Shown here in pieces: positions 31,664-52,388 of a DNA stretch of 64,000 nucleotides. The notes under the pieces are model-generated. The model was not told the DNA's origin, made no database searches, and was given only the letters and a program-made list of their open reading frames with translations. This DNA is from Nanobdellota archaeon (GTDB lineage: Archaea; Nanobdellota; Nanobdellia; Pacearchaeales; GW2011-AR1): positions 52,769-116,768 of the forward strand of contig JBBSXB010000001.1 of the NCBI GenBank assembly GCA_038046005.1, in the 5' to 3' direction. How positions within the stretch are numbered: position 1 is the stretch's first letter; every line of letters begins with the position of its first letter. A program made the position numbers and the translations under genes.

Positions 31664-32443
31664 ATGCACTATAAAGAGATAATGCTCCATAGACTTAGAG
31701 ACTTAGACTCAATTTTAAGAGCTAAAAAGAAAACTAAACTGTTTTTGTATGTATTTCTAAGACAAGTTTTTAAGTTAATTGGAATAAATGAAGAAAGAAT
31801 AAAATCTTTGATTGAAAAAAACGAGTCTAAAGTTTTTGGAAATATTTTTTATGTTAGAGAAAAAACTTTAGACTTTCTGTTTGTATCAAAGTATTACGAA
31901 CCAGAAACAACTAATTTTATAAGAAAAACAAAAGGCGATGTTTTTATTGATGTTGGAGCGCACATTGGAAGATATGCTGTTTTGAGTTCTGAAAGTTATA
32001 AAAAAGTTTATGCCATAGAACCTCATCCAGGGAATTTTAAATCTCTTAATAAAAATGTAAAACGCAATAATTTGAAAAACGTTTTTTGTTTAAATTTTGC
32101 TGCTTCTAATTTTGAAAAAACACTTTTTTTGGAAGATTTAAACATAAATACTGGAACAGTGAAAATTGATCCAGATGGTAAAATTAAGGTTAAGGCGAAA
32201 AAACTAGACAACTTGATTAAAAAAAATTCTATAAACGTCAGAGATTTGGGTTTGGTGCTCATTGACGTAGAGGGTCATGAGATTGAGGTCTTAAATGGTG
32301 CAAAGAACATGTTAAAGATAGGCAAGGCAAAACTTATAGTAGAAACTTTTGACTTAGAAAAATTGACCAGATTTCTTGAAAAGTATGGTTACAAAAAAAG
32401 AAGAATTTTCGATTACTACAATTATTTATTCGTAAAAGAATAA
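31664..32443 (+). CDS. FkbM-family SAM-dependent methyltransferase (second copy)
   Basis: 259 aa. DVGAHIGRYAV and the FkbM core. Paralogous to 29249..30019. Confidence 0.7.
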   Translation: MHYKEIMLHRLRDLDSILRAKKKTKLFLYVFLRQVFKLIGINEERIKSLIEKNESKVFGNIFYVREKTLDFLFVSKYYEPETTNFIRKTKGDVFIDVGAHIGRYAVLSSESYKKVYAIEPHPGNFKSLNKNVKRNNLKNVFCLNFAASNFEKTLFLEDLNINTGTVKIDPDGKIKVKAKKLDNLIKKNSINVRDLGLVLIDVEGHEIEVLNGAKNMLKIGKAKLIVETFDLEKLTRFLEKYGYKKRRIFDYYNYLFVKE

Positions 32444-33389: not shown

Positions 33390-34388
33390 ATGGAGATGCT
33401 TTTGATTCTTACAATTTTTATAAGTTTTAGTGTTACGTTTCTGATAATCCCGTACTGGATAAGAAAAGCTAGAGAAAATGGAATGGTTGCAAGAGACATG
33501 CACAAAAATGGAAAAGATGGTGTTGCAGAACATGGAGGAATTCCTGTTTTGTTTGGGTTGACAATCGGAATTTTGTCTTATATTGCTTTGAAAACATTTT
33601 ATTTCAAATCAGATGGTGAAACGATTTTTATTTTTGCATTGCTAAGTTCTGTTTTGATTAGTTCTATTGTTGGCCTTATGGACGATCTTCTCGGTTGGAA
33701 AAAAGGATTATCTAAAAAAATAAGACTTATTGCCATAGCTTTTGCAGCAATACCACTAATGGTAGTAAATGCGGGAGTAGATTCAGTTAGTTTACCTATT
33801 ATTGGAGGGGTTAACTTTGGATTATTATTCCCTCTAGTGATTATACCTTTAGGGATTGTTGGAGCTACAACAACTTTTAATTTTTTAGCAGGTTATAATG
33901 GATTGGAATCGAGCCAAGGAATTTTAATTCTAGGGGCTTTAGCTCTGGCAACATACATTACTGGAAGCAGTTGGGTGACTATTATTTGTTTATGTGGTGT
34001 AGCCTCACTTAGTGCCTTTTACATATTTAACAAACATCCTGCAGACATATTTCCAGGAAATATTTTAACTTATCTCACTGGAACTATGATTGCAGCAGTA
34101 GCGATTATAGGTAATGTAGAAAAAATAGCAATAATTTTCTTTATCCCTTACATTATTCAGACTGTATTGAAAGTAAGAGGAGGATTAAAAAAAGAGAGTT
34201 TTGCTGGTTTAAACAAAGATGGAAGTTTAGAAATGCCATATGACAAAGTATATGGATTAGAACATATAGCAATAGTAGTGTTAAAAAAAATAAGACCAAG
34301 CAAAAAAGTTTATGAAAAAGACGTTGTTTATTTGATAAACATTTTCCAGATTATATTTATTGCAATTGGATTTTTGACAATCTTATGA
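33390..34388 (+). CDS. aglH: Dolichyl-phosphate (UDP-)HexNAc-1-phosphate transferase (AglH/MraY/WecA family, GT4-like)
   Basis: 332 aa, about 10 TM. MDDLLG and NFLAGYNGLE motifs (the NxxxGxDGL of the MraY/WecA family). Confidence 0.8.
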   Translation: MEMLLILTIFISFSVTFLIIPYWIRKARENGMVARDMHKNGKDGVAEHGGIPVLFGLTIGILSYIALKTFYFKSDGETIFIFALLSSVLISSIVGLMDDLLGWKKGLSKKIRLIAIAFAAIPLMVVNAGVDSVSLPIIGGVNFGLLFPLVIIPLGIVGATTTFNFLAGYNGLESSQGILILGALALATYITGSSWVTIICLCGVASLSAFYIFNKHPADIFPGNILTYLTGTMIAAVAIIGNVEKIAIIFFIPYIIQTVLKVRGGLKKESFAGLNKDGSLEMPYDKVYGLEHIAIVVLKKIRPSKKVYEKDVVYLINIFQIIFIAIGFLTIL

Positions 34389-34456: not shown

Positions 34457-37420
34457 ATGACCGACGAAGAAAATAATGTTGGAAAAGAAAGCGAGAAAAA
34501 AGAATTTAATGAACATGTTCACCACAAAAAAAGCAGTGATGAAATTGATTTTTCCAAGTTTGTTAATGTGGTAAATAAAAATAATTATGTTTTAGTTTTT
34601 TCTATGCTTTCTCTTTTAGCACTAATAGTCAGCATTTTAAGTCTTGCAAAAGCAAATGTTGGAATCAGCGTTGTTAACAATCTGATTAATTTATTTCCTA
34701 CTTGGATTTTTTTGTTTCTTTTTGCAATGCTGATTTTATCATCTATATGTGCTTACTTTGAAAAATATGCAATAATGTTTTTGCCATTGTTGATATGGAT
34801 TATGTTTACAACTGCTTATGTAAGAACATCAAATTTAAGCCAGCTCAAAGATATAACTACTGGAGGCTATACTCTTGGACCAGATTTAGATCCATTCTTA
34901 TACTTAAGAAATGCTCAAGAAATTCTGAGAGGAACTCTCCAAAATCCTGACCCCATGAGATATGTCCCGCTTGGTTCACAAAACTACGCATTTGGTAATT
35001 TAATGCCTTGGGCACTTGTTTTTGTGTTTAAGATATTTTCTATATTTAGCAAAGTATCTCTAGAATATGCGGCAAACGTAACGCCCGTAATTTTCTTTTT
35101 AATATCGATGGTTGGGTTTTTTCTATTTAATAGAAGCATTTTTTCAATAAAATTTTCAAAAAACTTCGCAACAGCCGTAGCTATATTAGCTAGCGCCATT
35201 TATGCATTTTTGCCACAAATGCTCCATAGAACAACTGGTGGAATCCCTGAAATTGAAAGTTTAGGAATGGTTTGGTTTTGGTTTGCGTTGCTATTTTTTA
35301 CACTTGCTTGGAAAAATAAAGATAAGAAAAACTGGATAATTTACGGTGCTATAGCCGGAATCTTCACAGGATTAATGTCTTGGACTTGGGGAGGGTATAG
35401 ATATTTGTATATGGCCATAAGTGCAACTTCGTTTGTGTTCTTTTTATTTGAAAAAAATAGAAAAAAGAATTTTTACATATTCTTATCATGGGCAATTCCT
35501 GCCTTAATTCTAGAATTTTTAAGACTTAAAAGTTTATCAGCAATGATAATTAAAGTGAGTGATACTGGCTCGGCTATATTTATACTGTCCATATTCCTTG
35601 TTGATGTTTTAGTTGTAAAGACAAAACTAAAAGAAAGATTCTTCAAAAAGATACCTTTAAATGGAAGTCTGTTAAGTATAGCTATAGATGTTTTGCTCAT
35701 AATAATATTCTTATTAGTGCTTAATCCTAGTTTCTTGATAAATTCTACTTCAGGATTGATCCAAGGATTACTTTATCCATTTGGAAGAGGAAGAGTGGGA
35801 GTGACTGTTGCAGAAAACAAAGTCCCATATTTTTCAGAGATATTGGGCAATTTTGGAAACTTATTTTGGATTTTCCTCTTAGGAAATTTAGTAATATTTT
35901 GGGAATCTGCAAAAGAACTGAATAAAAAGAAAAGAATAACTCTCACAGCATTCTTTGTGTTATTACTTGCAGGATTATCTTTTTCTAGAATTTCGACAAG
36001 CAATTTATTGAATGGAAATAATCTCTTTTCAGATGTTTTTTACTTAAGTGGAATTATTTTATTTGGTGGTGCCATGGTTTATACTTGTTATAAAGCAAAA
36101 AGATTGAATGATGAGAGCACTTTGGATGGGTTAAAAAAAATAGGAGTTGCTGAAGTTTTAATTTTAGCACTTTCATTTTTTGCATTAGTCTCTACACGTG
36201 GGGCGATTAGATTATTTTTTATAATAGCCCCATTAATTACAATAGTTGTTGCATACATTCCTGTTAGGATAACCAAATCAATAAAAGACAACAGAGAAAA
36301 AGGGAAAAAGAATAATCTTGTTCTTTGGATTTTGTTTTTCGTATCAATACTAGCAATCCTAGGAGTTGGTATAAATAATGCAAACAGCACTTATGCCGAA
36401 GCAAGGTCTACAGTTCCAGGCATTTATGAACAATACTGGCAAAACGCAATGGCTTGGGTTAGAGAAAATACTACTGAAGGAAGTGTATTTGTTCATTGGT
36501 GGGACTATGGGTATTGGGTGCAAACTATTGGAGAACGACCGACAGTAACAGATGGGGGGCACTACATTGATTATTGGGATCATTTAATTGGAAGATATGT
36601 TTTAACTACTCCTTACCCAGAAACAGCACTTAGTTTCATGAAAACACATAATGTATCTTATTTGTTGATAGATGAGACTGATTTGGGAAAATACTCTGCA
36701 TACTCTAGCATAGGAAATGATCAAGACAATAATGACAGAATGTCCTGGATCTCGATGATGTTGCTAGACCAAAAACAAACTCAAGAAACTAGCAATTCCA
36801 CAATAATGGTTTATGCTGGAGGAAGCGCACTTGATGAAGACTTAATCTACAACCAAGGGGATAAAGAAATTTTTCTTCCTGAAGGAAAAGCAGGTTTAGC
36901 CGCGGTGATAATTGAAAACAAAAAATCAAATGAAAGCAGCCAGATTGGACAGCCAGTAGGAATTTTTGTGTATAATGGGCAACAGTTCAGAATTCCGATA
37001 AAAAGAATTTTCTTGAACAATAAGCTGATTAATTTTGATGAAGGAATAAATGCCACTGTCTTTTTGATTCCAACACTAGAGAACGCTCAAAATGGGGGTT
37101 TAAGAATAAACAATCTTGGGGGAATTATTTATTTGTCTAGAAAGGTGCAAGATGGTCTTTTTGCACAGCTTTATCTTATGGATGACCCTTCAAAAGAGTA
37201 TCCAACTCTAAGCTTAGCCCATGTTGAACCAGATCCATTAATAGGCAACATTAAGTCACGTGGAGCGGCAGATTTAGGGGATTTTATATATTACCAAGGA
37301 TTTAGGGGTCCAATGAAAATCTGGAAAGTCAGTTACCCAGATAGCATAATTAGCCGAGAGGAATTCTTGAGAACTGATGGATTATTTGGAGAATTTGATA
37401 ACCTGACTTTTACAAAATAA
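34457..37420 (+). CDS. aglB: Archaeal oligosaccharyltransferase AglB (STT3 family)
   Basis: 987 aa. N-terminal 13-TM region and WWDYGYW motif (VFVHWWDYGYWVQTIG) diagnostic for STT3/AglB. C-terminal periplasmic domain. Confidence 0.85.
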   Translation: MTDEENNVGKESEKKEFNEHVHHKKSSDEIDFSKFVNVVNKNNYVLVFSMLSLLALIVSILSLAKANVGISVVNNLINLFPTWIFLFLFAMLILSSICAYFEKYAIMFLPLLIWIMFTTAYVRTSNLSQLKDITTGGYTLGPDLDPFLYLRNAQEILRGTLQNPDPMRYVPLGSQNYAFGNLMPWALVFVFKIFSIFSKVSLEYAANVTPVIFFLISMVGFFLFNRSIFSIKFSKNFATAVAILASAIYAFLPQMLHRTTGGIPEIESLGMVWFWFALLFFTLAWKNKDKKNWIIYGAIAGIFTGLMSWTWGGYRYLYMAISATSFVFFLFEKNRKKNFYIFLSWAIPALILEFLRLKSLSAMIIKVSDTGSAIFILSIFLVDVLVVKTKLKERFFKKIPLNGSLLSIAIDVLLIIIFLLVLNPSFLINSTSGLIQGLLYPFGRGRVGVTVAENKVPYFSEILGNFGNLFWIFLLGNLVIFWESAKELNKKKRITLTAFFVLLLAGLSFSRISTSNLLNGNNLFSDVFYLSGIILFGGAMVYTCYKAKRLNDESTLDGLKKIGVAEVLILALSFFALVSTRGAIRLFFIIAPLITIVVAYIPVRITKSIKDNREKGKKNNLVLWILFFVSILAILGVGINNANSTYAEARSTVPGIYEQYWQNAMAWVRENTTEGSVFVHWWDYGYWVQTIGERPTVTDGGHYIDYWDHLIGRYVLTTPYPETALSFMKTHNVSYLLIDETDLGKYSAYSSIGNDQDNNDRMSWISMMLLDQKQTQETSNSTIMVYAGGSALDEDLIYNQGDKEIFLPEGKAGLAAVIIENKKSNESSQIGQPVGIFVYNGQQFRIPIKRIFLNNKLINFDEGINATVFLIPTLENAQNGGLRINNLGGIIYLSRKVQDGLFAQLYLMDDPSKEYPTLSLAHVEPDPLIGNIKSRGAADLGDFIYYQGFRGPMKIWKVSYPDSIISREEFLRTDGLFGEFDNLTFTK

Positions 37421-37468: not shown

Positions 37469-38581
37469 ATGCAAACGAATCATTCTAGAATAGCTGTTGT
37501 AATTGGCACAAAAGCTGAGTTGATTAAATGTATGCCCATAATGGTAGAACTGCAAAAGCAAAAGAAGGATTACTTTTTTATACATACTGGCCAACATCCA
37601 CTAGGCAAGATATGCAAAGACTTTGGAATAAAAAAACCAGATTTTGTATTGAGTCCCGAGCCCAAAATAAGCACAAAATTTTGGTCAAAAATTAACAGAA
37701 TTTCTTTTTTGTGGTTTTTTTCAATGATTTTCAAGATTAAAGAGGTTATAAAAAAGATAAATCCAAAATATGTTGTTTACCATGGCGACACTATGAGCAC
37801 TGCTGCAGCTGCAATAGGGTCCAGTAAAATTATTAATCCTTTAAAAAAATGGACAAACGTACATCTGGAAGCTGGCTTAAGATCAGGCTCATTGTTTGAG
37901 CCTTTTCCTGAGGAAATATCAAGAAGAATTTCAGACTCTTTTTCTGATATCCTCTTAGCAGTATCAGATCTTACAGAAGATAACCTAAGAAAAAGCTATG
38001 GGAATAAAAAAATAATCTTAAAGACTGGCAATACTATTATTGATTCATCTTTGTATACTTACAAAAAAATAGAAAAAAAATTTAAAAAAGAAAAAGAAGG
38101 GTATGTGTTGATCAATATTCACAGACATGAACATCTAAGAAATAAAGAGAATTTAAGAAAAATTGTAGAGGTCATTAACTCTATAAAAACAAAGGGAATC
38201 TGGCCGCTTCATGATAATACAGAATATTATCTTAAAAAGTATGGTCTTTTTGAAAAAATTAATAGAAAAAAAATTTTGATAACACCTTTAAAGACTTATG
38301 AAGAGTTTATTTTTCTTCTTGCAAATTGCAAATATCTCATTGCTGATGGTGGCTCAATCCAAGAAGAAAGCCTTGTTTTTAAAAAACCTTGTTTAGTTCT
38401 AAGAAATAGAACTGAAAGACAAGAAGGACTTAAAACGGGAATTAATTTTCTCACAATGGATGTAAAAAAAGCAAAGGAAATAATAAAAAGTTTAGACAAC
38501 AACAAGATAAAGATTAAACCTTTCAAAAATCCGTACGGAGAACCGGGCTTAAGTAAAAAAATAATTGAAATACTAAGATGA
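37469..38581 (+). CDS. wecB: UDP-N-acetylglucosamine 2-epimerase (non-hydrolysing, WecB family)
   Basis: 370 aa. N-terminal IAVVIGTKAELIKCMPI...HTGQH signature. Confidence 0.8.
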   Translation: MQTNHSRIAVVIGTKAELIKCMPIMVELQKQKKDYFFIHTGQHPLGKICKDFGIKKPDFVLSPEPKISTKFWSKINRISFLWFFSMIFKIKEVIKKINPKYVVYHGDTMSTAAAAIGSSKIINPLKKWTNVHLEAGLRSGSLFEPFPEEISRRISDSFSDILLAVSDLTEDNLRKSYGNKKIILKTGNTIIDSSLYTYKKIEKKFKKEKEGYVLINIHRHEHLRNKENLRKIVEVINSIKTKGIWPLHDNTEYYLKKYGLFEKINRKKILITPLKTYEEFIFLLANCKYLIADGGSIQEESLVFKKPCLVLRNRTERQEGLKTGINFLTMDVKKAKEIIKSLDNNKIKIKPFKNPYGEPGLSKKIIEILR

Positions 38582-39678
38582 AAAAAATTAAGGTATACCT
38601 CCAATTTCCATGGAATATTTCTGATTCACAATATTACAAAAGTTTGATAGAAAATCCCCCAGAAGGAGTAGAATACAAAAACACCACATCAAGAATTGGC
38701 ATGATATCTTCGGGGAAAAAATTAGCCTGGTTTAATTTTTTGAAAAGACAAATAAGAAGCTGGACCAAAAAATTTGGAATGGTTATTGTTAATTCCCACC
38801 TCACAAAAACAAATGGAGATTTTGATTTAATACATTGTGCTCATTGTCTTAGTAAAAATTTAGACAAACCTTGGGTGGCAGATTTTGAATCATGGTGGCA
38901 AATGTGGATTTCTGGGAGAGACAGCATAAGAGGAAGAGACAAAGTTTTAGAAATTTTAAAGAGAAAAGAATGTAAAAAGATACTAACCTGGACTCCGGCT
39001 GCAAAAGTCGAGATAGAAAAAAAATTTCCAGAAATTAAAAATAAGTTAGAAGTGGTAACTTTTGCTATGCCTTTTAGAAAAATAAAAAAGAAAAATAAAA
39101 AAGAAAAAGTTCTTTTATTTGTGTCAAGGTATTTCTTCCATAAGGGAGGATTGCATGCACTAGAGGTTTTTGATAGAATAACCAAACAAGAAAAAAATGT
39201 TAGGGCTATATTGGTCTCAGATGTCCCAGAAAACATAAAAGAAAAATATTCGCTCAATAAAAAAATACAGATACATGGACTAATGTCTAGTTCTAAGATA
39301 ATAAAAGAAATTTTTCCTATGGCAGACATATTTGTTTATCCGGGTTATAGTGACACATTTGGGTTTGTTTTTGTAGAAGCATTATCTTTTGGCTTGCCAA
39401 TTGTGACCGTGGAAGGTTTTTCTAGAAATTTTATTGTCAAAGATGGTGAAACAGGATTTATAATAAAAAAAGACGCAGAGATTGAAATAGAGGCTTTAGG
39501 GAAAAAAGAAGAAATTATTGTTCAGAGGATGGTTGAAAAAACATTAACAATATTAAAAGATGAAAAACTGAGAAGGAAAATGTCACAAAATTGTATAGAA
39601 GAAGTTAAAAATGGTAAATTCTCTATAAAAGAAAGAAATAGTAAGCTGAAAAAAATTTATGAGGGAGCTATAATATAG
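38578..39678 (+). CDS. Glycosyltransferase family 1/4
   Basis: 366 aa. C-terminal E-x7-E-type motif (FVEALSFGLPIV). Confidence 0.75.
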   Translation: MKKIKVYLQFPWNISDSQYYKSLIENPPEGVEYKNTTSRIGMISSGKKLAWFNFLKRQIRSWTKKFGMVIVNSHLTKTNGDFDLIHCAHCLSKNLDKPWVADFESWWQMWISGRDSIRGRDKVLEILKRKECKKILTWTPAAKVEIEKKFPEIKNKLEVVTFAMPFRKIKKKNKKEKVLLFVSRYFFHKGGLHALEVFDRITKQEKNVRAILVSDVPENIKEKYSLNKKIQIHGLMSSSKIIKEIFPMADIFVYPGYSDTFGFVFVEALSFGLPIVTVEGFSRNFIVKDGETGFIIKKDAEIEIEALGKKEEIIVQRMVEKTLTILKDEKLRRKMSQNCIEEVKNGKFSIKERNSKLKKIYEGAII

Positions 39679-39682
39679 CAAA

Positions 39683-40942
39683 ATGGACAATACAATTGAA
39701 GCTGTTAAAAATTGCAGAGCTTGTGGAGCAAATAATTTTGTGCCGATACTATCTTTAGGAAATCAATTTATTACTAACTTTGTTTCGTCAGAAAAGGAAC
39801 AAGGAGAAAAAGTCCCATTGGATTTGATTTTGTGCAATGATTGTAAAGTTATGCAGCTGAGACATAGTGCTCCTCCAGAAGCCATGTGGGGGGATCAATA
39901 TTGGTATAAATCTGGAATTAGCAGCACTATAAAAGCAGATTTAAAAGATATTGCTGAAAAAGCCCAACAATTGGCCAAGTTAAATAATAATGATATTGTT
40001 ATTGACATTGGATGCAATGACGGAACTATGCTAGATTTTTACAAGGGGAAAAATCTTAGTTTAGTAGGATTTGAGCCGTCTAAAAATGTTGCAAGAGAAG
40101 CTTCAGCAAAGGGACATAAAGTTATAAATGATTTTTTTAACGCTGAGAGTTTTAAAAAGGAGTTTGGCAATAAAAAAGCAAAAATAATAACAGCTATCTC
40201 CATGTTTTATGATCTTGAAGATCCAAACAAATTTTTAAAAGACATAGTATCTGTGATGGACAAAGAGGGGATATTTATAATACAACAAAATTATTTGCTT
40301 ACCATGTTAGAACAAAACGCTTTTGATAATATTTGCCATGAACACAGAGAGTATTATTCTGTTTACTCACTAAAGAAACTCTTGAATAAACACAACTTAG
40401 AGATATTTGATGCCGAACAGAATAGCATAAATGGTGGAAGTGTAAGAACCTACATAAGACTGAAAAATAATAAAAATGTTAATGGATTTTCTGGAGCAGA
40501 AGAAAGGTTAAAAAAAATAGAAGAAGCTGAAATGAAAGCTAAATTAGACTCTGAACTCCCATACAGAAAATTTGCATCTAGGGTTGATGGTATAAAAAAT
40601 AAGTTAATGGATTTTTTAAAAGAGGAAAAGAAAAAAGGGAAAAAGATATGGATCTACGGGGCTTCCACAAGAGGAAATGTTATACTACAATACTTTGGCC
40701 TTGGACCAAACCTAATTGATTGCATAGCCGACATGAACCCAGACAAATGGGGTAAAAAAACCGTTGGCTCTTTAATCCCAATTGATTCTCCAAAAAAAAT
40801 GAGAGAAGCAAATCCAGATTTTTTAGTAGTGAACACTTGGCATTTTTTGGATGAGATAGTTAATCAAGAAAAAGAATATTTTAACAAAGGGGGTAAATTT
40901 GTCGTCGCTCTCCCAGATTTCAAGACCATTGATAAGACTTAG
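39683..40942 (+). CDS. SAM-dependent methyltransferase with N-terminal zinc ribbon and C-terminal C-methyltransferase-like domain (NDP-hexose C-methyltransferase-like)
   Basis: 419 aa. CRACG...CNDCKVMQL Cys4 ribbon, class I MTase core (VIDIGCNDGTML), long C-terminal domain. Architecture matches TylCIII-type sugar C-methyltransferases. Confidence 0.55.
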   Translation: MDNTIEAVKNCRACGANNFVPILSLGNQFITNFVSSEKEQGEKVPLDLILCNDCKVMQLRHSAPPEAMWGDQYWYKSGISSTIKADLKDIAEKAQQLAKLNNNDIVIDIGCNDGTMLDFYKGKNLSLVGFEPSKNVAREASAKGHKVINDFFNAESFKKEFGNKKAKIITAISMFYDLEDPNKFLKDIVSVMDKEGIFIIQQNYLLTMLEQNAFDNICHEHREYYSVYSLKKLLNKHNLEIFDAEQNSINGGSVRTYIRLKNNKNVNGFSGAEERLKKIEEAEMKAKLDSELPYRKFASRVDGIKNKLMDFLKEEKKKGKKIWIYGASTRGNVILQYFGLGPNLIDCIADMNPDKWGKKTVGSLIPIDSPKKMREANPDFLVVNTWHFLDEIVNQEKEYFNKGGKFVVALPDFKTIDKT

Positions 40943-41784
40943 TTCTCAATCAATCTTTTCTTAATCACACTTAATCCCTTTTCGAAAGTAGTAAACTTTA
41001 TTCCTAGACCATTCATCTTAGCAGTGTTTAAAGTTGCATTTTCCGGAATCTTTATCGCAACTGGCTGTGATTTATTTATTTTTATTAAAGAATTTTCTCT
41101 AACAATTGACTCAAGATTTCCTAGCAACTCAATTATTTCCATTTTATCCGGACCTGCTAAATGGAAAATCCCTTTTTTATTTCTTTTTACCAGTTCCATC
41201 ATTAATCTCGGAACATCATCCACAAAAATAGGTTGCCTGAGTTGATGAGGTTCCCGTAATTCTATAAAATTACCAGACAAAACTGTATCAAAAACCCCAT
41301 TTTTTTTATCTTTTCCATTATACCCATACATAATATCTACTCTAAGGATAATTCCTTTTGGGTTTTTCAAGATTTCTTTTTCGGCCATAATTTTTGTTCT
41401 TGCATACTCATTTATTGGGCTGGTTTTATCATCTTCATTATAATTGCCAGTTTTCCCATCGAATAAATAAGAAGAAGACATAAAAACCATCCAGGCTCCA
41501 ATTTCATTAGCGACCTCTGAGATATTCTTGGCCGTTTTATAGTTTAGGTCTTCGGCGAGGCGAGGATTATTCTCGCACTTAGTTGAGCTCGTCAAGGCAA
41601 CTGTGTCTAAAATGACTTCTGGTTTATACTTTAATAGGAATTTTCTTACCTCAGAAATGTTCAAAACATCCAATTTATTTTCTGAAGAATTTTTTCCAGC
41701 TTTCACCACTTCATTGTTTTTTGATAAAATTTCTGCTGCTTTCGTTCCCAAAAAGCCATCTGCGCCGATTATGGCTACTTTCAT
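40939..41784 (-). CDS. rmlD: dTDP-4-dehydrorhamnose reductase-like NAD(P)-dependent reductase (RmlD family)
   Basis: 281 aa. VAIIGADGFLG Rossmann motif and YARTK (YxxxK). Confidence 0.7.
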   Translation of the reverse strand: MKVAIIGADGFLGTKAAEILSKNNEVVKAGKNSSENKLDVLNISEVRKFLLKYKPEVILDTVALTSSTKCENNPRLAEDLNYKTAKNISEVANEIGAWMVFMSSSYLFDGKTGNYNEDDKTSPINEYARTKIMAEKEILKNPKGIILRVDIMYGYNGKDKKNGVFDTVLSGNFIELREPHQLRQPIFVDDVPRLMMELVKRNKKGIFHLAGPDKMEIIELLGNLESIVRENSLIKINKSQPVAIKIPENATLNTAKMNGLGIKFTTFEKGLSVIKKRLIEN

Positions 41785-42878
41785 TTTAAAGCGTGATAAA
41801 TTTTTTTGTATTTTCTGGCAATTGCAGACAATCCATTTTCCTTAAGGTAGTTAACACATTCTTGTTCCATTCTTTTAAGGTTTCGTGGTTTTATTGAATC
41901 TTTTATAACTCTTGGATAATCTTCGTCATCTTTAGCTATAGCAATTCCCTTAAAATGTCTTGACGCCTCATTAAAGAATTTTATATTGCTTACAATTATT
42001 GGCCTCTTTGCAGCTATTGAATGTGCAAAGATTCCACTCCCAATTCCCCCCCTATATGGAAGAAGAACTAAATCTGCTGCTGCAAAATATTTCCACCATA
42101 AAGGGTTCTTATCAGTTATGTCAAAAATATCAAAACGCACAAACTTTTCTAATTTTTTTTGTTTAACAATCTGTTTATTTTCCTCAATATAATCTCTTAC
42201 TCGGTCCGTATTTCTATCATTTACAGAACCTGGATTTGCAACAACAAGGGTTGTTCCACCTATTTTATCAGCTTGGTTGATGATAATATCATGGCCGTGA
42301 TCAGGCACCATACTCCCCATGAATAAATAAACTGGGCCAGATAATTTTAATTCCTTTTTTGTTTTTAATTTGTCATAAGAAGGCACATTCTCTATTATTC
42401 CTTGTGGAAGAACAGCTATTTTTGAAGGAGAAAAATTATACTCCTTGACTAATATATCCTTAAAAAACTCTGCATGAACAACAACCATATCTGAACACCA
42501 ATTTATAACTCTATTTTGAGTGAAATACAGAAATTTTCTAAAAAACGTCTTTAGTTTGCTACCTTTAAATTTTTCTTTTTTGGATAAAACTGTATGCATT
42601 GTCGTAATAACCCTACATTTACAAAAAGAAAACAAGAAATAAAGGGCAAAAAATGGAAGGCCATAACCTCCGAGCAAGTTATATTCGTGTTGTATATGAA
42701 CAACATCATATTTTTTTATTTCCTTAAATTTTTTGAATATATTGAATGGAGAACCGGCAGTATAATTTATGTTACTAATATCTTCTCCCTGTTGTTTAAT
42801 ACTATCAACAAGAGTTACAGAATAACCTGAAATCGCTTTTTCAGATTCTCTCGTTGGAAAAACCATTGCTATTTTCAT
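41781..42878 (-). CDS. Glycosyltransferase family 1/4
   Basis: 365 aa. GT-B fold. Overlaps the rmlD-like gene by 4 nt. Confidence 0.7.
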   Translation of the reverse strand: MKIAMVFPTRESEKAISGYSVTLVDSIKQQGEDISNINYTAGSPFNIFKKFKEIKKYDVVHIQHEYNLLGGYGLPFFALYFLFSFCKCRVITTMHTVLSKKEKFKGSKLKTFFRKFLYFTQNRVINWCSDMVVVHAEFFKDILVKEYNFSPSKIAVLPQGIIENVPSYDKLKTKKELKLSGPVYLFMGSMVPDHGHDIIINQADKIGGTTLVVANPGSVNDRNTDRVRDYIEENKQIVKQKKLEKFVRFDIFDITDKNPLWWKYFAAADLVLLPYRGGIGSGIFAHSIAAKRPIIVSNIKFFNEASRHFKGIAIAKDDEDYPRVIKDSIKPRNLKRMEQECVNYLKENGLSAIARKYKKIYHALK

Positions 42879-42901: not shown

Positions 42902-43888
42902 TTAATGAATATTACTTTTTGAGTGTTGAATTTTTATTTTCCAGTAATCAATTGTTTTTTTTAATCCTTCCTCTGGTGAGACTGTCTGTTCCCAATGCAG
43001 GATTTTTTTTGCTTGCGTACTATCCAGAACTAAATAAGGCTGGTCTGACGCCAATGGTCTATTTGGGTATCCTGGAGGGAATTCCCTCAAGTGCAATTTG
43101 CTTTCAGGAAATCCTATAAGTTTAGCAATTTTCAGCGCCCACTCTTTATTTGTAATTCCTTTTCCCCCAGAGATATTAAACGCGCTTCCTTGAATGTTTT
43201 TGGTTTTCATGGCTAAAAGGTAAGAATTAACATGATCCTCAACATACATGTAGTCTCTTATGGAATCTGGAGCACCTATGTAGATATCTTTTCCTTTGAT
43301 CATCTCTGTTATGAGGTACTCGGTAAAAAAACCCGGATCGTATTTTCTTCCAAACGTGTTGCTATTTCTTAAAATGACCACATTGAAATTATAAACTTTA
43401 TTTAGCATCCTCATGTAAATATCCATTGCTGCTTTGCTTACAGCGTATGGACTTGAGGCTTCTAATGACATATCTTCTGTGAAAGGAGTAAACTCTTTTA
43501 TCCCATAAACTTCTGCTGTTGAGGCTACTACTAGCCTAACTTTTTCAGGGCCATAAAGCTCAAGAATAGCCTCAGCCATATTCACTGACCCGAGATAATT
43601 TACTTTCTGGTATGCAATAGGATGTTCAAAGCTTAATCTTACTGGGGATAAGGCTGCAAGATGAAAAACAACATCAGGATTAACTTTTTGAAGAGAGTTT
43701 TTTATGGAGGTATAATCTACAATGTCGCATACGATTATTTTTATTTTGTCTTTAATGTCTTCTATGCTTTCTAAATTTCTTCCGATTACATGCCTAACAA
43801 TTCCGAAAACTTCATGGCCTTCATTCACTAATTTATGGGCCAATTCGCTTCCTATAAAACCAGTGATTCCAGTAATCATAACTCTCAT
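42902..43888 (-). CDS. NAD-dependent NDP-sugar 4,6-dehydratase/epimerase (GDP-mannose 4,6-dehydratase-like)
   Basis: 328 aa. ITGITGFIGSELAHKLVNEGHEVFGIVR closely resembles the GMD N-terminus. YAVSKAA catalytic YxxxK. Confidence 0.65.
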   Translation of the reverse strand: MRVMITGITGFIGSELAHKLVNEGHEVFGIVRHVIGRNLESIEDIKDKIKIIVCDIVDYTSIKNSLQKVNPDVVFHLAALSPVRLSFEHPIAYQKVNYLGSVNMAEAILELYGPEKVRLVVASTAEVYGIKEFTPFTEDMSLEASSPYAVSKAAMDIYMRMLNKVYNFNVVILRNSNTFGRKYDPGFFTEYLITEMIKGKDIYIGAPDSIRDYMYVEDHVNSYLLAMKTKNIQGSAFNISGGKGITNKEWALKIAKLIGFPESKLHLREFPPGYPNRPLASDQPYLVLDSTQAKKILHWEQTVSPEEGLKKTIDYWKIKIQHSKSNIH

Positions 43889-43928: not shown

Positions 43929-44408
43929 TCAAGTAATGTTTAACCTAGACAGCAAATTATCAAGATATTTTTTTGATCCTTCTATGTCAGATTCTAATGG
44001 GGCCCACGGGGCGAATTCTTTGTAGATTTTAGGGTCGTATGGGCCTTGGGTTATTTCCAAAATCACTGCAGGATTATCAATAACAACTAATGAGTGGAAA
44101 TTTTTTTCCGGGATGTAGACTAAAGATGATACATCCCTAGAAGATTCCGAGACAATTTCGTAGTTTTTTATATCTCCTTCGTCTGTGAAATAGATCGGAG
44201 CAAGCTTACCTCTGAGAACTAACCAGTATTCATCTAATCTTTCACCATGCCTATGGGGCCTGACGTAAGTTCCTGGAAGCATTGCATTTAGTAAAGGTCT
44301 TACTCCCGTGTAATCTGCTGGTTTCAAAGCTTTAGCCTTCCTTAACCGAGGGTCTTTTCTAGCTTCTTCTAACAAATCATCAATAATTTTTTGGTTGACT
44401 GATTCCAT
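43929..44408 (-). CDS. Cupin-fold protein, WbuC-like (found in O-antigen/LPS clusters)
   Basis: 159 aa. RPHRHG metal-binding-like motif in a small beta-barrel sized protein. Assignment tentative. Confidence 0.45.
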   Translation of the reverse strand: MESVNQKIIDDLLEEARKDPRLRKAKALKPADYTGVRPLLNAMLPGTYVRPHRHGERLDEYWLVLRGKLAPIYFTDEGDIKNYEIVSESSRDVSSLVYIPEKNFHSLVVIDNPAVILEITQGPYDPKIYKEFAPWAPLESDIEGSKKYLDNLLSRLNIT

Positions 44409-44504: not shown

Positions 44505-45215
44505 ATGATATTTAAAACAGCAGTGATTATTGCTGGGGGGAAAGGAGAAAGACTGGGAGATATTGGAGAAGGACTACCAAAACCACTTGTAAAAGTTGAA
44601 GGAAAACCAATTTTAGAAAGAATAATCTTGTGGTTGAAAAAGAATGGTGTGGAAAAAATTGTGATAGGGGTTGCCTACAAAAAAGAAATGATTAAAGATT
44701 ATTTTGGTAATGGTAATAGACTTGGTGTAAAAATAATTTACACAGAACATGATGAGAATGGGGGAACTGAAGACGCTTTTAGGACTGCAATAGAAAAGTC
44801 TAAGATTGATGATGAAAATTTTTACGCATTGAATGGTGATCAAATCACAGATCTTCAACTTGAAGGGGTTACAAATAAACATTTAGTTTCACACGCAACA
44901 GTAACCATGATTACCACTAATCTAAGGACCAACTTTGGAATTGTGCAGATTGATGACAAGAATAGAATTGCTAACCTAAAAGAGAAGGGAGAAGTGAAAG
45001 GATTGCTCATCAATACCGGAATTTATGTTTTCAATAAAAAAATAAAAAATTATTTGGTCGGGGGAAACATAGAAGAAAAGGCTTTTAGAAAGCTGATAGA
45101 GGAAAAAAACATGATTTCATTTTACTATGACGGGCTGTGGACCAGCTTTAATGACAAAAAAGAACTCGCAGTAGCTGAAAAAGCAATTAGGGAATTTAGC
45201 GGACTGATTGATTAA
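44505..45215 (+). CDS. Sugar-1-phosphate nucleotidyltransferase
   Basis: 236 aa. N-terminal AVIIAGGKGERLGD...GLPKPLV signature of NTP-transferase (RmlA/GlmU-N-like). Confidence 0.8.
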   Translation: MIFKTAVIIAGGKGERLGDIGEGLPKPLVKVEGKPILERIILWLKKNGVEKIVIGVAYKKEMIKDYFGNGNRLGVKIIYTEHDENGGTEDAFRTAIEKSKIDDENFYALNGDQITDLQLEGVTNKHLVSHATVTMITTNLRTNFGIVQIDDKNRIANLKEKGEVKGLLINTGIYVFNKKIKNYLVGGNIEEKAFRKLIEEKNMISFYYDGLWTSFNDKKELAVAEKAIREFSGLID

Positions 45216-47420: not shown

Positions 47421-48527
47421 TCAATCAGTTTTGTTAAAAAAATCATCCAAACAACCACACACTCTTTTCTGATCATCCAGAGTTAACTCACCATGAAGAG
47501 GTAGAGAAAGAAGATTGTTGAATAGTAAGCTAGAATTTGTTAGCCCCCCCATATTTTTCAGATTTGCAAACGCTGGTTGAGTATGAAGCGCAAACGTTCC
47601 TATTTGGGATTCTATACCCTCACTGTGCAGATAGGAAATCACAGAGTCTCGTATTCCGTTTTCTTTTAGGAGCACAGTATAGGATTGAAAATTATGTTTA
47701 TTCCCTTCTGAAACATATGGTATTGTAAGGTAGCCTTTTTCCTTTAAAAGTTGGTTATATGAAAACGCTTTTTCTATTCTTCCGGTCACAATTTTTTCTA
47801 ATTTTTTTAATTGTTCCAAACCTATTGCTCCAAGGATGTTGCTAAACTTATAATTTGATCCCAAGGTTACAAATCGACCTTCTTCCATCCCAAAATGTTT
47901 GAAAGAATGCATTTTATTGTAAAGAATCAAATTGTCGGTGGTTATCATCCCCCCTTCACCAGTAGTAATTACCTTCCTGGGATGAAGACTAAAACAGGTA
48001 AGATCAGCAAGCGAACCCACCTTACACCCATCCAATTCTGACCCAAGGCTACATGCAGCATCTTCAATCAAAGGGATCCCAGCATTTTTTGCAAAGTCAT
48101 AGATTTCTTTGTCTAAAGGATTTCCCCCCCATGATACTGGCATAATTGCTTTTATTTTTGGAGTAATAGCTTCCTTTATTGCTTCGAGGGTTACGTTTCG
48201 TGATTTGACATCAACGTCAACAAGAATTGAATCGGCTCCAACAAGCATTACAGCTTCTGCTGTTGCAGGGTAGGTAAAATCTGGCATTACTACTTCATCT
48301 CCAGGGCCAATATTAAGAACTCTTAATGCTAGTTCAAGAGCAATGGTACAATTTGGAACCGCCACAGCATATTTTGCACCGACACTTTTTGCAAATTCTT
48401 CTTCAAATTTTTTAGTCACAACACCTTCAGTCAAAAATTTAGAGTCAAAAACTGCCTTTACTGCATTCAACTCTTCATCCCCCATTGTGGGTCTTGATAA
48501 GTGTATGTATTTTTGATTCTGTCCCAT
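47421..48527 (-). CDS. DegT/DnrJ/EryC1/StrS-family PLP-dependent sugar aminotransferase
   Basis: 368 aa. Characteristic family sequence, including the SxHxxK-like Lys region. Confidence 0.85.
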   Translation of the reverse strand: MGQNQKYIHLSRPTMGDEELNAVKAVFDSKFLTEGVVTKKFEEEFAKSVGAKYAVAVPNCTIALELALRVLNIGPGDEVVMPDFTYPATAEAVMLVGADSILVDVDVKSRNVTLEAIKEAITPKIKAIMPVSWGGNPLDKEIYDFAKNAGIPLIEDAACSLGSELDGCKVGSLADLTCFSLHPRKVITTGEGGMITTDNLILYNKMHSFKHFGMEEGRFVTLGSNYKFSNILGAIGLEQLKKLEKIVTGRIEKAFSYNQLLKEKGYLTIPYVSEGNKHNFQSYTVLLKENGIRDSVISYLHSEGIESQIGTFALHTQPAFANLKNMGGLTNSSLLFNNLLSLPLHGELTLDDQKRVCGCLDDFFNKTD

Positions 48528-48589
48528 TGGTTCTTTAAAAGACTACTATTTAAAAGGATATCTGTTTTGAGGACACAAATGTTTAAAAT

Positions 48590-49366
48590 ATGTATAATCT
48601 ACAAAAAATAATGAAGAATAACCCTTCAAATCTCAAGCAGGTATGGGAAGAATATTACGAAGAGGAAAGTGACACTGCAATAAAAGATAAGCCTTTTTTC
48701 TTGCTGGAAACAGAAACGATAGAAAAAGAAGTTGGAAAAATTGCAGAGAATAAAAAAAAGTTGAGTATCTTGGAGTTAGGATGTGGAACTGGCTTTTTAG
48801 CAAAAAGATTGATAAAAACTGTCTTCAAAAATCAAGAGTACACTTACACTGGAGTAGACATATCAAATAAGGCAATTGATAAAGCAAAAAAAAGAAAAAT
48901 ACCCAAGACTTTTTTCATGGAAGCTGATTTTTTTAATTTTTTTGAGAAAAGCACAAAAAAATATGATTTAATAATCTCCCAGAGATCCATAATGGCATTA
49001 TTAAAAAAGGAAGAGCAACTAAAACTTTTAGGTTTAATTAACTCTAGGCTGACAGATAAGGGCATCGGACTGTTTACAGAGTGTCTACATGAAGCTTCTG
49101 AAGAAATAAATGATTATCGAAAACAATTAGGGATTGAGCCATTTAAAAAAGTTTGGCACAGTAGATACCTGAGAATTGACGAAATAAAACAAATTTTTGA
49201 AAAATACAAGATTGTTGACTTTTGCTCTACTTACTGGCTAATAACAAGAATTATCTACCCTTATTTTAAAGAACCAAAACATAACACCCGTTTGTCTAAA
49301 GTTGTAGCAGAGTTCCCAGAGTCGGGAAAATATGGGCTGGTTAAACTAATAATTGTTCAAAAATGA
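48590..49366 (+). CDS. Class I SAM-dependent methyltransferase
   Basis: 258 aa. LELGCGTGFLAKRL motif I. Confidence 0.7.
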   Translation: MYNLQKIMKNNPSNLKQVWEEYYEEESDTAIKDKPFFLLETETIEKEVGKIAENKKKLSILELGCGTGFLAKRLIKTVFKNQEYTYTGVDISNKAIDKAKKRKIPKTFFMEADFFNFFEKSTKKYDLIISQRSIMALLKKEEQLKLLGLINSRLTDKGIGLFTECLHEASEEINDYRKQLGIEPFKKVWHSRYLRIDEIKQIFEKYKIVDFCSTYWLITRIIYPYFKEPKHNTRLSKVVAEFPESGKYGLVKLIIVQK

Positions 49367-50244
49367 AATCTATTTTGATAACTGGCGGAAGCGGTTTAGT
49401 TGGAAGTAATGTTGCTAAATTTTTTAATAATAAAGGTTATAAAATTTTTACGGTTGATTTGAAAGAAAGTTCATTTAACAACCATATTGTGTGTGACTTG
49501 AGCAAAAAAGAAAATTTAGTAAAGCTGCCAGAGAAAGTTGATTATGTTTTTCATTTTGCGGCGCATGTGGATGAGAAAGATGAAAATAAGGAGTATTTAC
49601 TAAGAAATAACGTACTTTCTACATTAAATGTATTAGAATATGCTCTTAAAAATAAGGTTGAAAAAGTTGTTTATTCCTCAAGCAGTGCAGTCTATGGAAA
49701 GACTGAAGAGTACCCAATAAAAGAAGATTTCTCAAAAAAGCCCCAGTCAATTTACGGAATATCAAAATATTTTGGAGAAGAACTTTGTAATCTCTATCGG
49801 AAAAGAGGGTTGCAAATAATATCATTCAGATTAGGTTATGTTTTGGCTCCAGTAATCCCAGAAAGGTATTTTATTTACAGAATTATGAAAAAACTAAACA
49901 ATAATGAGTGTATCACAATCACAAATGGAGTCAAGAATAGCATGTCATTTGTTGATGTGGAAGACATAGGGGCTTTTTGTGAGGAAGGGTTGAATAAAGA
50001 CCTAACTGGGAATTTTAATCTGACAGGCCAAAGAGAAGTGAATTCAAAAGAGGTCATAGATCTTCTAGTTAAAATGTTTAAAGAATATTCTGGAGAAATT
50101 AAAGAGGAAGAAAATAATTCAATCATGAGAAATTGTTTTTCCAATGAGAGACTTTACTCGACGTTTAATCAGAGGTATAGGCTCGGTATTGAGGATTCTT
50201 TAAACAGAATAGTCGCTAGTTTTAAAGACGGTCTAACGGAGTAA
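49363..50244 (+). CDS. NAD-dependent epimerase/dehydratase family protein
   Basis: 293 aa. ITGGSGLVGSNV and YGISKYFGE (YxxxK). Confidence 0.75.
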   Translation: MKSILITGGSGLVGSNVAKFFNNKGYKIFTVDLKESSFNNHIVCDLSKKENLVKLPEKVDYVFHFAAHVDEKDENKEYLLRNNVLSTLNVLEYALKNKVEKVVYSSSSAVYGKTEEYPIKEDFSKKPQSIYGISKYFGEELCNLYRKRGLQIISFRLGYVLAPVIPERYFIYRIMKKLNNNECITITNGVKNSMSFVDVEDIGAFCEEGLNKDLTGNFNLTGQREVNSKEVIDLLVKMFKEYSGEIKEEENNSIMRNCFSNERLYSTFNQRYRLGIEDSLNRIVASFKDGLTE

Positions 50245-51277
50245 ATCTTGCTTTTAAAGGAACCATATATTTCATGAATATAACTTCTGCAGGAGTTTTC
50301 ATCTTTGTATAGAGTTTGTCTGTAAGTGAAAAATGGGTGACTCTGTTCCCAAACTTAACACTACTTGCATTTGCTACAGTGATCAAAAGAACATCTGAAG
50401 AAGAGCCTTCGATATTTGAGATTACAGTTTTTGGATCTTGTGTTAATAAGATTTTGAATTGATAGTCTCTTGTGGACAGAACATCTTCCCTCGAAGAAGC
50501 ATCTTGTCTTGTGTCAATAGTATAACCACTGTATTTATTAAGATCACGACCAAATTCTCCTAAAAAGTTGGACATCAAGTTTAATTTTTCTTGTATATCC
50601 AGATTTTTATAAGAAGAAAAACCTTCAACCACTTTTGCAGGATTACCTCTAGCAAGCGAGTTTGGGAGGACATCTTTTGTCACATTACTCTGGAAAAGAA
50701 CAATTGCCCTATCTCCGATGGTTACTCCAGGAGAAACATAAACCGAACCTGTAAGCCAAACATCATTTCCTATAGTGACGGGCGCAATAGAATTAACAAC
50801 GCATCCTTCCAATAGTTCTCCATGGTATCCATGAGAGTATATCTCTGAGCGAGCCCCAATACCAACATTATTACCAATTGTTAACCCTCCAGATGAATTA
50901 AGAATAGCATCGCTACCTACCCAGAAATTATGGCCTATTGAAAGAGGTAAGTGACCTTGAAATCTAACTCCGTCCTGGACTGTCGCATAATCACCAATAG
51001 ATAATTTAGGAAGGTAAATCTTACAATTTTCCCACACATCACAAAAATCCCCAAGACTCAATGATTCAAGGTTAATTTTTCTAGAAGAAACAACATTAAC
51101 TCCTCTCCTGATTCTGGTCCCATCACCAACATAAATTTTCTCTCCAGCTAGTGAAACTCCATCTTCAATTATGACATCTTTTCCAATGTATAAATTGGCT
51201 GCTTCAATGTAAGCTCGCTTAGACACTTTTGCAGAATTATCAACGTATGAATTCGTTGCCTTTATATTTTGGGGCAT
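50222..51277 (-). CDS. Left-handed beta-helix (hexapeptide-repeat) acyl/acetyltransferase with ~120-aa C-terminal extension of unknown function
   Basis: 351 aa. Many [LIV]-G-x4 hexapeptide repeats in residues about 20-230. C-terminus has no recognisable motif. Confidence 0.6.
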   Translation of the reverse strand: MPQNIKATNSYVDNSAKVSKRAYIEAANLYIGKDVIIEDGVSLAGEKIYVGDGTRIRRGVNVVSSRKINLESLSLGDFCDVWENCKIYLPKLSIGDYATVQDGVRFQGHLPLSIGHNFWVGSDAILNSSGGLTIGNNVGIGARSEIYSHGYHGELLEGCVVNSIAPVTIGNDVWLTGSVYVSPGVTIGDRAIVLFQSNVTKDVLPNSLARGNPAKVVEGFSSYKNLDIQEKLNLMSNFLGEFGRDLNKYSGYTIDTRQDASSREDVLSTRDYQFKILLTQDPKTVISNIEGSSSDVLLITVANASSVKFGNRVTHFSLTDKLYTKMKTPAEVIFMKYMVPLKARFTPLDRL

Positions 51278-51331
51278 AGATTAAAAGGAGTAACGGCATT
51301 TAAAAAATTATGTGTTTTTAAAAATGGTTAA

Positions 51332-52330: not shown

Positions 52331-52388
52331 TTTGCCTAGTAAAAAAAGAATGTTTAAAAGATTTTCGGTATAAAAACGAATGTATTAG

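Follow-up and report, generated by a model that had tools for sequence, protein, structure and literature searches.

A putative NDP-hexose C-methyltransferase of the TylCIII lineage in the AglB glycosylation locus of a Nanobdellota archaeon

Introduction

The nucleoside diphosphate (NDP)-hexose 3-C-methyltransferases TylCIII (Streptomyces fradiae), AviG1 (S. viridochromogenes) and EryBIII (Saccharopolyspora erythraea) act in the formation of mycarose and related antibiotic sugars, and genetic or biochemical evidence for C3-methyl sugar formation exists for all three (cited in PMC3539893); work cited in the same paper assigns the TylCIII product an axial hydroxyl and an equatorial methyl group at C3. 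Here we describe an archaeal counterpart, encoded at positions 39683-40942 of a 64,000-nucleotide stretch of a Nanobdellota archaeon genome (GenBank assembly GCA_038046005.1, contig JBBSXB010000001.1, positions 52,769 to 116,768), the whole of which we refer to as the window. We give a probability of roughly 60% to the reading that it is a zinc-containing, S-adenosylmethionine (SAM)-dependent NDP-4-ketohexose C-methyltransferase making an NDP-6-deoxy-3-C-methylhexose, whose sugar would be transferred to protein by AglB as part of an N-glycan.

The actinomycete enzymes share with the archaeal protein a three-domain organization of similar length (407-418 versus 419 amino acids), the four zinc cysteines, a Tyr/Glu/His catalytic set and an identical Asp/Cys signature. 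Theirs, however, is a role in secondary-metabolite glycosylation, with a dTDP-4-keto-2,6-dideoxyhexose substrate supplied by a 2,3-dehydratase and a 3-ketoreductase, whereas the archaeal gene belongs to a protein-glycosylation operon.

Closer in its presumed chemistry is Coxiella burnetii CBU_0691, the predicted C3-methyltransferase for virenose (6-deoxy-3-C-methylgulose) of the lipopolysaccharide, with which the locus would share an NDP-4-keto-6-deoxyhexose that retains its 2-hydroxyl, methylation at C3, reduction at C4 and a cell-surface glycan as destination (PMC3539893). CBU_0691 differs in being bacterial, in serving a lipopolysaccharide O-antigen and in having a function predicted in silico only. 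Its sequence as printed (PMC3539893, Additional file 1-F) starts past the first cysteine pair, and its fourth zinc position is occupied by Ser; this reflects either a mis-called start codon or, in Coxiella, a degenerate zinc site.

Similarly, the CDP-cereose/cillose pathway of Bacillus cereus (PMC7725333) is encoded by an operon (rfbF, rfbG, C-methyltransferase, 4-reductase) with the same four activities and a 3-C-methyl-6-deoxyhexose as product. Its methyltransferase, however, is of another subgroup with a His/Tyr signature and 30.6% identity to the archaeal enzyme, and the proteins encoded with it are genuine CDP-glucose enzymes; in a plasmid copy (L084) the gene order is rfbF-rfbG-methyltransferase. 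The enzymology of cereose and cillose, as a sugar of B. cereus surface glycoproteins, was reportedly described by Li et al. in J Biol Chem in 2017. The solved enzymes TcaB9, KijD1 and MtmC are homologous to the archaeal protein over their full length, and their zinc site and the equivalents of TcaB9 Tyr76, Glu224 and His225 are kept in it; TcaB9 differs at His181 and Tyr222, which are Asp and Cys in the archaeal enzyme, and overall identity to TcaB9 and MtmC is 25-27%.

An intact three-domain sugar methyltransferase

The methyltransferase gene is real, intact and conserved:

39683-40942, + strand: sugar C-methyltransferase, 419 amino acids, ATG start

The open reading frame (ORF) carries no frameshift, and NCBI lists an identical protein from a Nanoarchaeota metagenome-assembled genome under the name class I SAM-dependent methyltransferase (Nanoarchaeota archaeon). 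A preliminary description, made from the DNA sequence alone, had read into this protein a Cys4 ribbon (CRACG...CNDCKV), a class I SAM fold and a long C-methyltransferase-like C-terminal domain, and had named the Methyltransf_13/14 profiles as a check. All of this held up: each of the three domains exceeds the Pfam gathering score, by margins that chance would not produce. The ribbon (C11-R-A-C14 and C51-N-D-C54) falls in the match to the putative zinc-binding domain Methyltransf_13 (PF08421, residues 11-68, E 4.6e-13; 49.6 bits, the cutoff being 31.3). The class I methyltransferase models Methyltransf_23/11/12/31 match residues 91-241 (Methyltransf_23 E 1.4e-18), where SAM motif I (VIDIGCNDG, residues 105-113) pairs with VLDIGSNDA of TylCIII. 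The C-methyltransferase C-terminal domain Methyltransf_14 (PF08484) covers residues 249-411 (E 3.9e-46; 157 bits, the cutoff being 23.5), the match spanning profile positions 2-160 of 160.

A sequence search of the PDB returned end-to-end matches to MtmC (4rv9, E 2e-51), TcaB9 (3ndi and mutants, E ~2e-46) and KijD1 (5t64, E 1e-44), the next-best matches being generic methyltransferases at E ~1e-3; no O-methyltransferase scored close to the three sugar enzymes. With full-length homology to three solved structures, the fold is settled; moreover, the best matches are sugar 3-C-methyltransferases, not the O-methyltransferases or non-sugar methyltransferases with an unrelated C-terminus that would have spoken against the preliminary description. 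The same search returned no structure from the TylCIII lineage, and an NCBIfam search matched no specific model to the protein. In a large protein collection, 5833 of 8000 scored candidates reached E <= 1e-10, and two relatives among the matches listed carry the JGI name NDP-4-keto-2,6-dideoxyhexose 3-C-methyltransferase.

Active site and lineage

To place the active site we mapped Tyr76, His181, Tyr222, Glu224 and His225 of TcaB9 onto the archaeal enzyme and its relatives (PDB chain numbering is literature numbering + 2). The roles of TcaB9 Tyr76, Glu224 and His225, together with the choice of residues for mutagenesis, were reportedly set out by Bruender and Holden in 2012; the H181N variant is visible as a difference between 4e2w and 3ndi and corroborates that choice for His181 only. 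The equivalents of Tyr76, Glu224 and His225 (Y73, E220 and H221) do not vary across the archaeal enzyme, 83 related loci and all reference enzymes, and the four zinc cysteines, which align with those of TcaB9, are kept in every related locus with that stretch present. The His181 position is Asp in all 83 related loci (D177 in the archaeal enzyme), while the Tyr222 position (C218) is Cys in 80 and Ser in the other three.

This Asp/Cys signature (MFYDL... and D..CHEH) is common to TylCIII, EryBIII, AviG1 and CBU_0691, whose sequences were taken from the supplementary alignment of PMC3539893, and is found also in enzymes of a lankamycin cluster (L090), a Pseudonocardia deoxysugar cluster (L086) and Azospirillum (L089). 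His/Tyr is instead the pair of TcaB9, MtmC, the rfbF-rfbG-linked B. cereus enzyme (L084) and enzymes from Brachyspira, Roseibium and Sinorhizobium. We had considered that the changes of His181 to Asp and Tyr222 to Cys might mark a divergent or novel active site, an idea dropped on finding the same pair to be the norm of the TylCIII lineage.

Identities follow the same division. By blastp the archaeal enzyme is 34.7% identical to TylCIII (298 bits), 34.9% to AviG1, 34.1% to EryBIII and 35.1% to CBU_0691, with 277-298 bits for the three actinomycete enzymes, as opposed to 26.9% for MtmC, 25.3% for TcaB9 and 30.6% for the B. cereus-type enzyme. In a neighbour-joining tree (200 bootstraps) a TylCIII-type group that includes the archaeal enzyme is split from a TcaB9/MtmC/CDP-type group at 100%. 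On these sequence comparisons the enzyme is a member of the TylCIII lineage beyond architecture alone. The label TylCIII-like of the preliminary description is therefore sustained by the identities (34-35% versus 25-27%), the Asp/Cys signature and the 100% grouping, and the active-site comparison with TylCIII and TcaB9 that it had proposed finds the Tyr/Glu/His set kept and a signature that matches TylCIII, not TcaB9.

Two observations concern other members of the family. In Azospirillum thermophilum (L089, plasmid NZ_CP029359.1) an Asp/Cys methyltransferase of the TylCIII lineage directly follows pseB-pseC, a context that hints that some members methylate UDP-4-keto-6-deoxy-N-acetylhexosamine intermediates in place of simple 6-deoxyhexoses. 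A second, distant Methyltransf_13/14 paralog stands at the same locus in L010, L012, L046, L052, L072 and L075, with 28-32% identity to the window enzyme (47% in L046); these genomes may make two different C-methyl sugars.

Distribution of the methyltransferase

We surveyed GTDB contigs, one genome per species, for relatives of the methyltransferase. Close relatives, at 50-90% identity, occur in Nanoarchaeota, Woesearchaeota and Pacearchaeota, others at ~50% in Micrarchaeota, Diapherotrites/Iainarchaeum and Bathyarchaeia, and further ones at 44-50% in Patescibacteria, Dehalococcoidia, Planctomycetia, Omnitrophota, Aminicenantes and Actinomycetota. Given this spread across DPANN, Bathyarchaeia and other phyla, the gene is common in uncultivated archaea and not a one-off acquisition. 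One locus labelled as from a bacterium (L034, JAUUWR010000050.1) has the archaeal order of WecB, GT1-family glycosyltransferase and methyltransferase, the last 64% identical to the window enzyme, and probably comes from a Nanoarchaeota genome, mis-binned or unclassified, and not from a bacterium.

The methyltransferase ends an AglB operon

On the + strand four co-directional genes lead up to the methyltransferase:

33390-34388, + strand: AglH-like glycosyltransferase (Glycos_transf_4), 332 amino acids, PF00953 3.3e-29; conserved upstream of AglB
34457-37420, + strand: AglB/STT3 oligosaccharyltransferase, 987 amino acids, PF02516 and PF21436, WWDYG at residues 681-685
37469-38581, + strand: WecB, non-hydrolysing UDP-GlcNAc 2-epimerase, 370 amino acids, PF02350 1.2e-60
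38578-39678, + strand: GT1-family glycosyltransferase, 366 amino acids, directly upstream of the methyltransferase

The gaps from AglH to AglB, WecB, GT1 and methyltransferase are 68, 48, -4 and 4 bp. WecB scores 205 bits against a cutoff of 210 for TIGR00236, and the AglH-like protein is predicted from its family match to be the N-acetylhexosamine (HexNAc)-1-phosphate transferase that starts the lipid-linked glycan. AglB retains WWDxG, as do all 17 AglB orthologs of related loci, and is packed with glycan-assembly genes, as expected of an AglB-based N-glycosylation cluster. The preliminary description had placed the methyltransferase inside a glycan cluster, and its surroundings (AglB/STT3, the AglH-like protein, WecB, glycosyltransferases, short-chain dehydrogenase/reductases (SDRs), a nucleotidyltransferase and a flippase) bear this out.

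Directly upstream of the AglH-like gene lies a SpoIIM-like membrane protein (PF01944, 32482-33342, + strand), conserved at that position in L001, L008, L010, L012, L016, L017, L019-L021, L025, L026 and L028. Just upstream of AglH-AglB there are also two FkbM-type (Methyltransf_21) methyltransferases (29249-30019 on the - strand and 31664-32443 on the + strand), candidates for O-methylation of the glycan; related locus L002 likewise has two copies.

A sugar-synthesis module converges on the methyltransferase

From the other side a sugar-synthesis module meets the methyltransferase, its - strand genes (WbuC cupin, RmlB-like SDR, GT4 and RmlD-like SDR) overlapping or nearly touching:

40939-41784, - strand: RmlD-like SDR, 281 amino acids, PF04321 1.7e-41, TIGR01214 1.5e-37 (below the equivalog cutoff)
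41781-42878, - strand: GT4-family glycosyltransferase, 365 amino acids, PF13439/PF13692
42902-43888, - strand: RmlB-like extended SDR, 328 amino acids, motifs STAEVYG and YAVSK
43929-44408, - strand: WbuC-family cupin, 159 amino acids, TIGR04366 1.7e-32
44505-45215, + strand (divergent): sugar-1-phosphate nucleotidylyltransferase, 236 amino acids, PF00483 1.3e-31

The RmlD-like SDR, which overlaps the convergent methyltransferase gene by 4 bp, has a YARTK motif and finds its best PDB matches in MAT2B and the Sulfolobus RmlD (2ggs); it is predicted from these features to be an NDP-4-ketohexose 4-reductase. The GT4 is a candidate transferase for the methylated sugar. The RmlB-like SDR has 2hun as its best PDB match, and STAEVYG is unchanged across 20 of its Nanoarchaeota and Bathyarchaeia orthologs (L001-L018, L054, L058, L060, L083). 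The WbuC cupin, between the SDR and the nucleotidyltransferase, is shared with a 90%-identical relative (L004) alone and is missing from the other ~25 syntenic loci; it is accessory, and may be an epimerase that changes the stereochemistry of the sugar in this sublineage.

The order AglH-AglB-WecB-GT1-methyltransferase, together with the reductase, GT4, SDR and nucleotidyltransferase, recurs in ~25 loci of Nanoarchaeota/Woesearchaeota/Pacearchaeota type. Within reach of the methyltransferase, the Nanoarchaeota-type loci retrieved contain AglB in 16 cases, WecB in ~20 and the RmlD-like SDR in 22, with an SDR ortholog of at least 60% identity in 16 and a nucleotidyltransferase of at least 55% identity in 14, the gene order being the same with few exceptions; in most Nanoarchaeota loci the reductase and dehydratase genes flank GT4. 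Bathyarchaeia have the nucleotidyltransferase and an STAEVYG-type SDR immediately after the methyltransferase, and in another archaeal clade (L035, L041, L042, L055) a canonical STDEVYG RmlB lies near the methyltransferase. The carbanion mechanism at C3 (or C5) requires an adjacent 4-keto group, and the recurrence of a 4,6-dehydratase-type SDR as partner suggests that the methyltransferase acts on a 4,6-dehydratase product.

Proposed pathway and product

In the pathway that we propose, the nucleotidyltransferase (44505-45215) would activate a hexose-1-phosphate to the NDP-hexose, which the RmlB-like SDR (42902-43888) would convert to an NDP-4-keto-6-deoxyhexose. In the methyltransferase, His221, held by Glu220, would take the C3 proton of this intermediate, and the resulting enolate, stabilised via the 4-keto group and Tyr73, would receive the methyl group of SAM at C3. 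The RmlD-like SDR (40939-41784) would then reduce C4 to give an NDP-6-deoxy-3-C-methylhexose of the virenose/cereose/cillose type. The embedded GT4 (41781-42878) may add the methylated sugar to a dolichol-linked glycan begun by AglH, WecB and GT1, three proteins that suggest a HexNAc-N-acetylmannosamine (ManNAc) start, and AglB would transfer the completed glycan to Asn. Methylation at C3, the kind of nucleotide and of hexose, the role of the SDR as a dehydratase and the N-glycan destination are inferred.

Four Pfam scans of the neighbourhood covered 40 ORFs on either side of the ribosomal-protein operon (16-28 kb): ten larger ones within the first 16 kb, and those of the glycan cluster (28.7-63.5 kb). 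Among these 40 ORFs there was no Pfam match to a 2,3-dehydratase (Hexose_dehydrat), an aldo-keto 3-ketoreductase or an RmlC-type epimerase, and the conserved module contains no genes for 2-deoxygenation, whereas at the actinomycete locus L086 a 2,3-dehydratase adjoins the methyltransferase. With no 2-deoxygenation genes among the ORFs scanned, the product is likely an NDP-6-deoxy-3-C-methylhexose (virenose/cillose-like), and we set aside a mycarose-type 2-deoxy pathway: the route likely resembles virenose/cereose biosynthesis rather than that of mycarose. A glucose-configured start would give a gulo or allo product, that is, virenose/cereose or cillose.

A CDP-sugar pathway as in B. cereus was also considered and rejected, the nucleotidyltransferase scoring 86 bits against a cutoff of 300 (TIGR02623), the SDR 114 against 278 (TIGR02622), and the methyltransferase signature being different. 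More tentatively, and with the odds falling somewhat short of even, Nanoarchaeota of the Woesearchaeota/Pacearchaeota type may build a conserved N-glycan core from HexNAc, ManNAc and a 3-C-methyl-6-deoxyhexose, the last made by the four-gene module with its putative non-canonical Thr-Ala-Glu dehydratase.

Weighing the assignment

Several observations weigh against the proposed function. All metagenomic sequences, the window enzyme included, form a sister 'environmental' clade (92%), within which the Nanoarchaeota sequences are monophyletic (100%) and which is distinct from the characterised branch that unites the actinomycete enzymes and Coxiella (98%). The 5-C-methyltransferases NovU, CloU and CouU of the noviose pathway, moreover, share the same Pfam architecture. 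The nucleotidyltransferase is of ambiguous specificity, scoring alike, and below cutoff, against models for the archaeal GlmU N-domain, ManC, HddC, AglF and RfbF. In the deeper Nanoarchaeota loci L019-L031 neither the SDR nor the nucleotidyltransferase was found within the retrieved flanks. Adjacency to AglB is strong but circumstantial as evidence for the N-glycan destination. Finally, the best NCBIfam match of the RmlB-like SDR is dTDP-glucose 4,6-dehydratase (169 bits), followed by LegB, yet it falls below every equivalog cutoff, and its STAEVYG motif (Thr-Ala-Glu) replaces Thr-Asp-Glu, so that the general-acid Asp of RmlB is absent.

Motif comparison sets this SDR beside the Salmonella enterica RmlB (STDEVYG) and the GDP-mannose dehydratases (GMD; STSE(L/M)(Y/F)G). 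The Glu for C5 proton abstraction is retained and GMD functions without the RmlB-type Asp, and for these reasons a 4,6-dehydratase activity is plausible on motif evidence; the STAEVYG proteins may be a distinct dehydratase subfamily or have a different activity. The SDR, like the nucleotidyltransferase, adjoins the methyltransferase and is co-conserved with it; the two are a putative source of NDP-4-keto-6-deoxyhexose.

In one rival reading, which the separation of the clade from all characterised C3 enzymes favours, the enzyme would methylate C5. C5, like C3, is alpha to the 4-keto group, and the same fold and catalytic set would serve for methylation there, as in NovU and noviose formation; the product would be a 5-C-methyl (gem-dimethyl) 6-deoxyhexose, reduced by the RmlD-like enzyme in the manner of NovS, and a reductase of the kind conserved here is the type found in the noviose pathway. 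Against this, every characterised or solved relative compared (TylCIII, EryBIII, AviG1, MtmC, TcaB9, KijD1) is a C3 enzyme, every diagnostic residue matches the TylCIII group and the conserved module has no RmlC/NovW-type epimerase, and we regard C5 methylation as clearly unlikely. Somewhat more credible, although still improbable in our judgement, is that the enzyme is a genuine sugar C-methyltransferase whose product goes to an O-linked glycan, a glycolipid or a surface polysaccharide. The Wzx-like flippase and the many glycosyltransferases of the window could serve further glycans, and the bacterial members of the clade (Patescibacteria, Planctomycetia and others), having no AglB, must use the sugar elsewhere; here, however, the methyltransferase closes a compact run of co-directional genes, AglH and AglB among them, and 16-17 related genomes preserve the linkage although AglB itself has diverged by 35-50%.

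A third reading would have the enzyme act like TcaB9 and KijD1 on a 3-amino-4-keto sugar to give a 3-amino-3-C-methyl sugar, drawing on the DegT/PseC-like aminotransferase encoded 6.5 kb downstream (47421-48527). That gene, however, lies outside the conserved module and scores best against the 4-aminotransferase models PseC and ArnB, and the methyltransferase itself is without the TcaB9 His/Tyr signature, standing in the other subgroup at 100% bootstrap, which makes this route highly improbable. Methylation at C3 of an NDP-4-keto-6-deoxyhexose for an N-glycan is the reading that we prefer.

Other features of the window

That aminotransferase belongs to a second sugar-modification set (47421-54278), which also comprises a class I methyltransferase, two SDRs, a 351-amino-acid hexapeptide acetyltransferase and a 629-amino-acid AsnB-type amidotransferase, followed by the Wzx-like flippase (54330-55691). 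The set is not conserved with the methyltransferase module and points to amination, acetylation or amidation of a sugar, whether in this glycan or in another. Further downstream a canonical rmlB lies in three out-of-frame fragments (56544-57573, - strand), of which the N-terminal carries GGSGFIGS, the middle STDEVYG/YSATK/NNYGP and the C-terminal HDFRYSID; the adjoining 264-amino-acid ORF (55757-56551, - strand) is RmlD-like over its first ~108 residues and a SecD/SecF C-terminal domain over the rest. A search for repeated DNA behind these SDR/SecF fragment ORFs at 55.7-57.6 kb found none. Lying next to secDF, they look like what is left of a decayed rhamnose pathway, in a window whose conserved module has an intact, non-canonical SDR, or else like an artefact of assembly or a frameshift.

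Implications

The preliminary description had expected a C-methylated sugar to be unusual in an archaeal N-glycan, which fits a 2024 review of unusual archaeal N-glycan sugars: it covers 5-O-methyl-hexosulose, 6-C-sulfofucose, sulfoquinovose, inositol phosphate and others, and a term search of it found no C-methyl-branched sugar. The gene itself is nevertheless common in DPANN and Bathyarchaeia. Among the eight top-ranked of 427 literature matches, no prior report linked 3-C-methyltransferases to Woese-, Pace-, Nano- or Bathyarchaeota. We know of no N-glycan structure determined for an archaeon of the Woesearchaeota/Pacearchaeota type.

The TylCIII lineage, usually seen as a family for antibiotic sugars, has a large environmental sister clade spanning DPANN, Bathyarchaeia, Patescibacteria and other phyla. 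The enzymology is as expected and the mechanism unsurprising, and the value of the finding lies mainly in annotation and in DPANN surface glycobiology: a known enzyme family probably works here in a new biological setting, placing a methyl-branched 6-deoxy sugar on the glycoproteins of an uncultivated DPANN archaeon. The proposal makes a testable prediction, a residue of 160.07 Da (methyl-deoxyhexose) with a diagnostic tertiary methyl signal in nuclear magnetic resonance. If true, archaeal N-glycans would gain a new and chemically distinct class of sugar and, to our knowledge and by the term search of the 2024 review, the first C-branched (C-methyl) one reported. Cells of the Woesearchaeota/Pacearchaeota type are thought to depend on surface contact with hosts, and the sugar would, if the proposal is true, be a lineage-wide surface marker of episymbiotic Nanoarchaeota.

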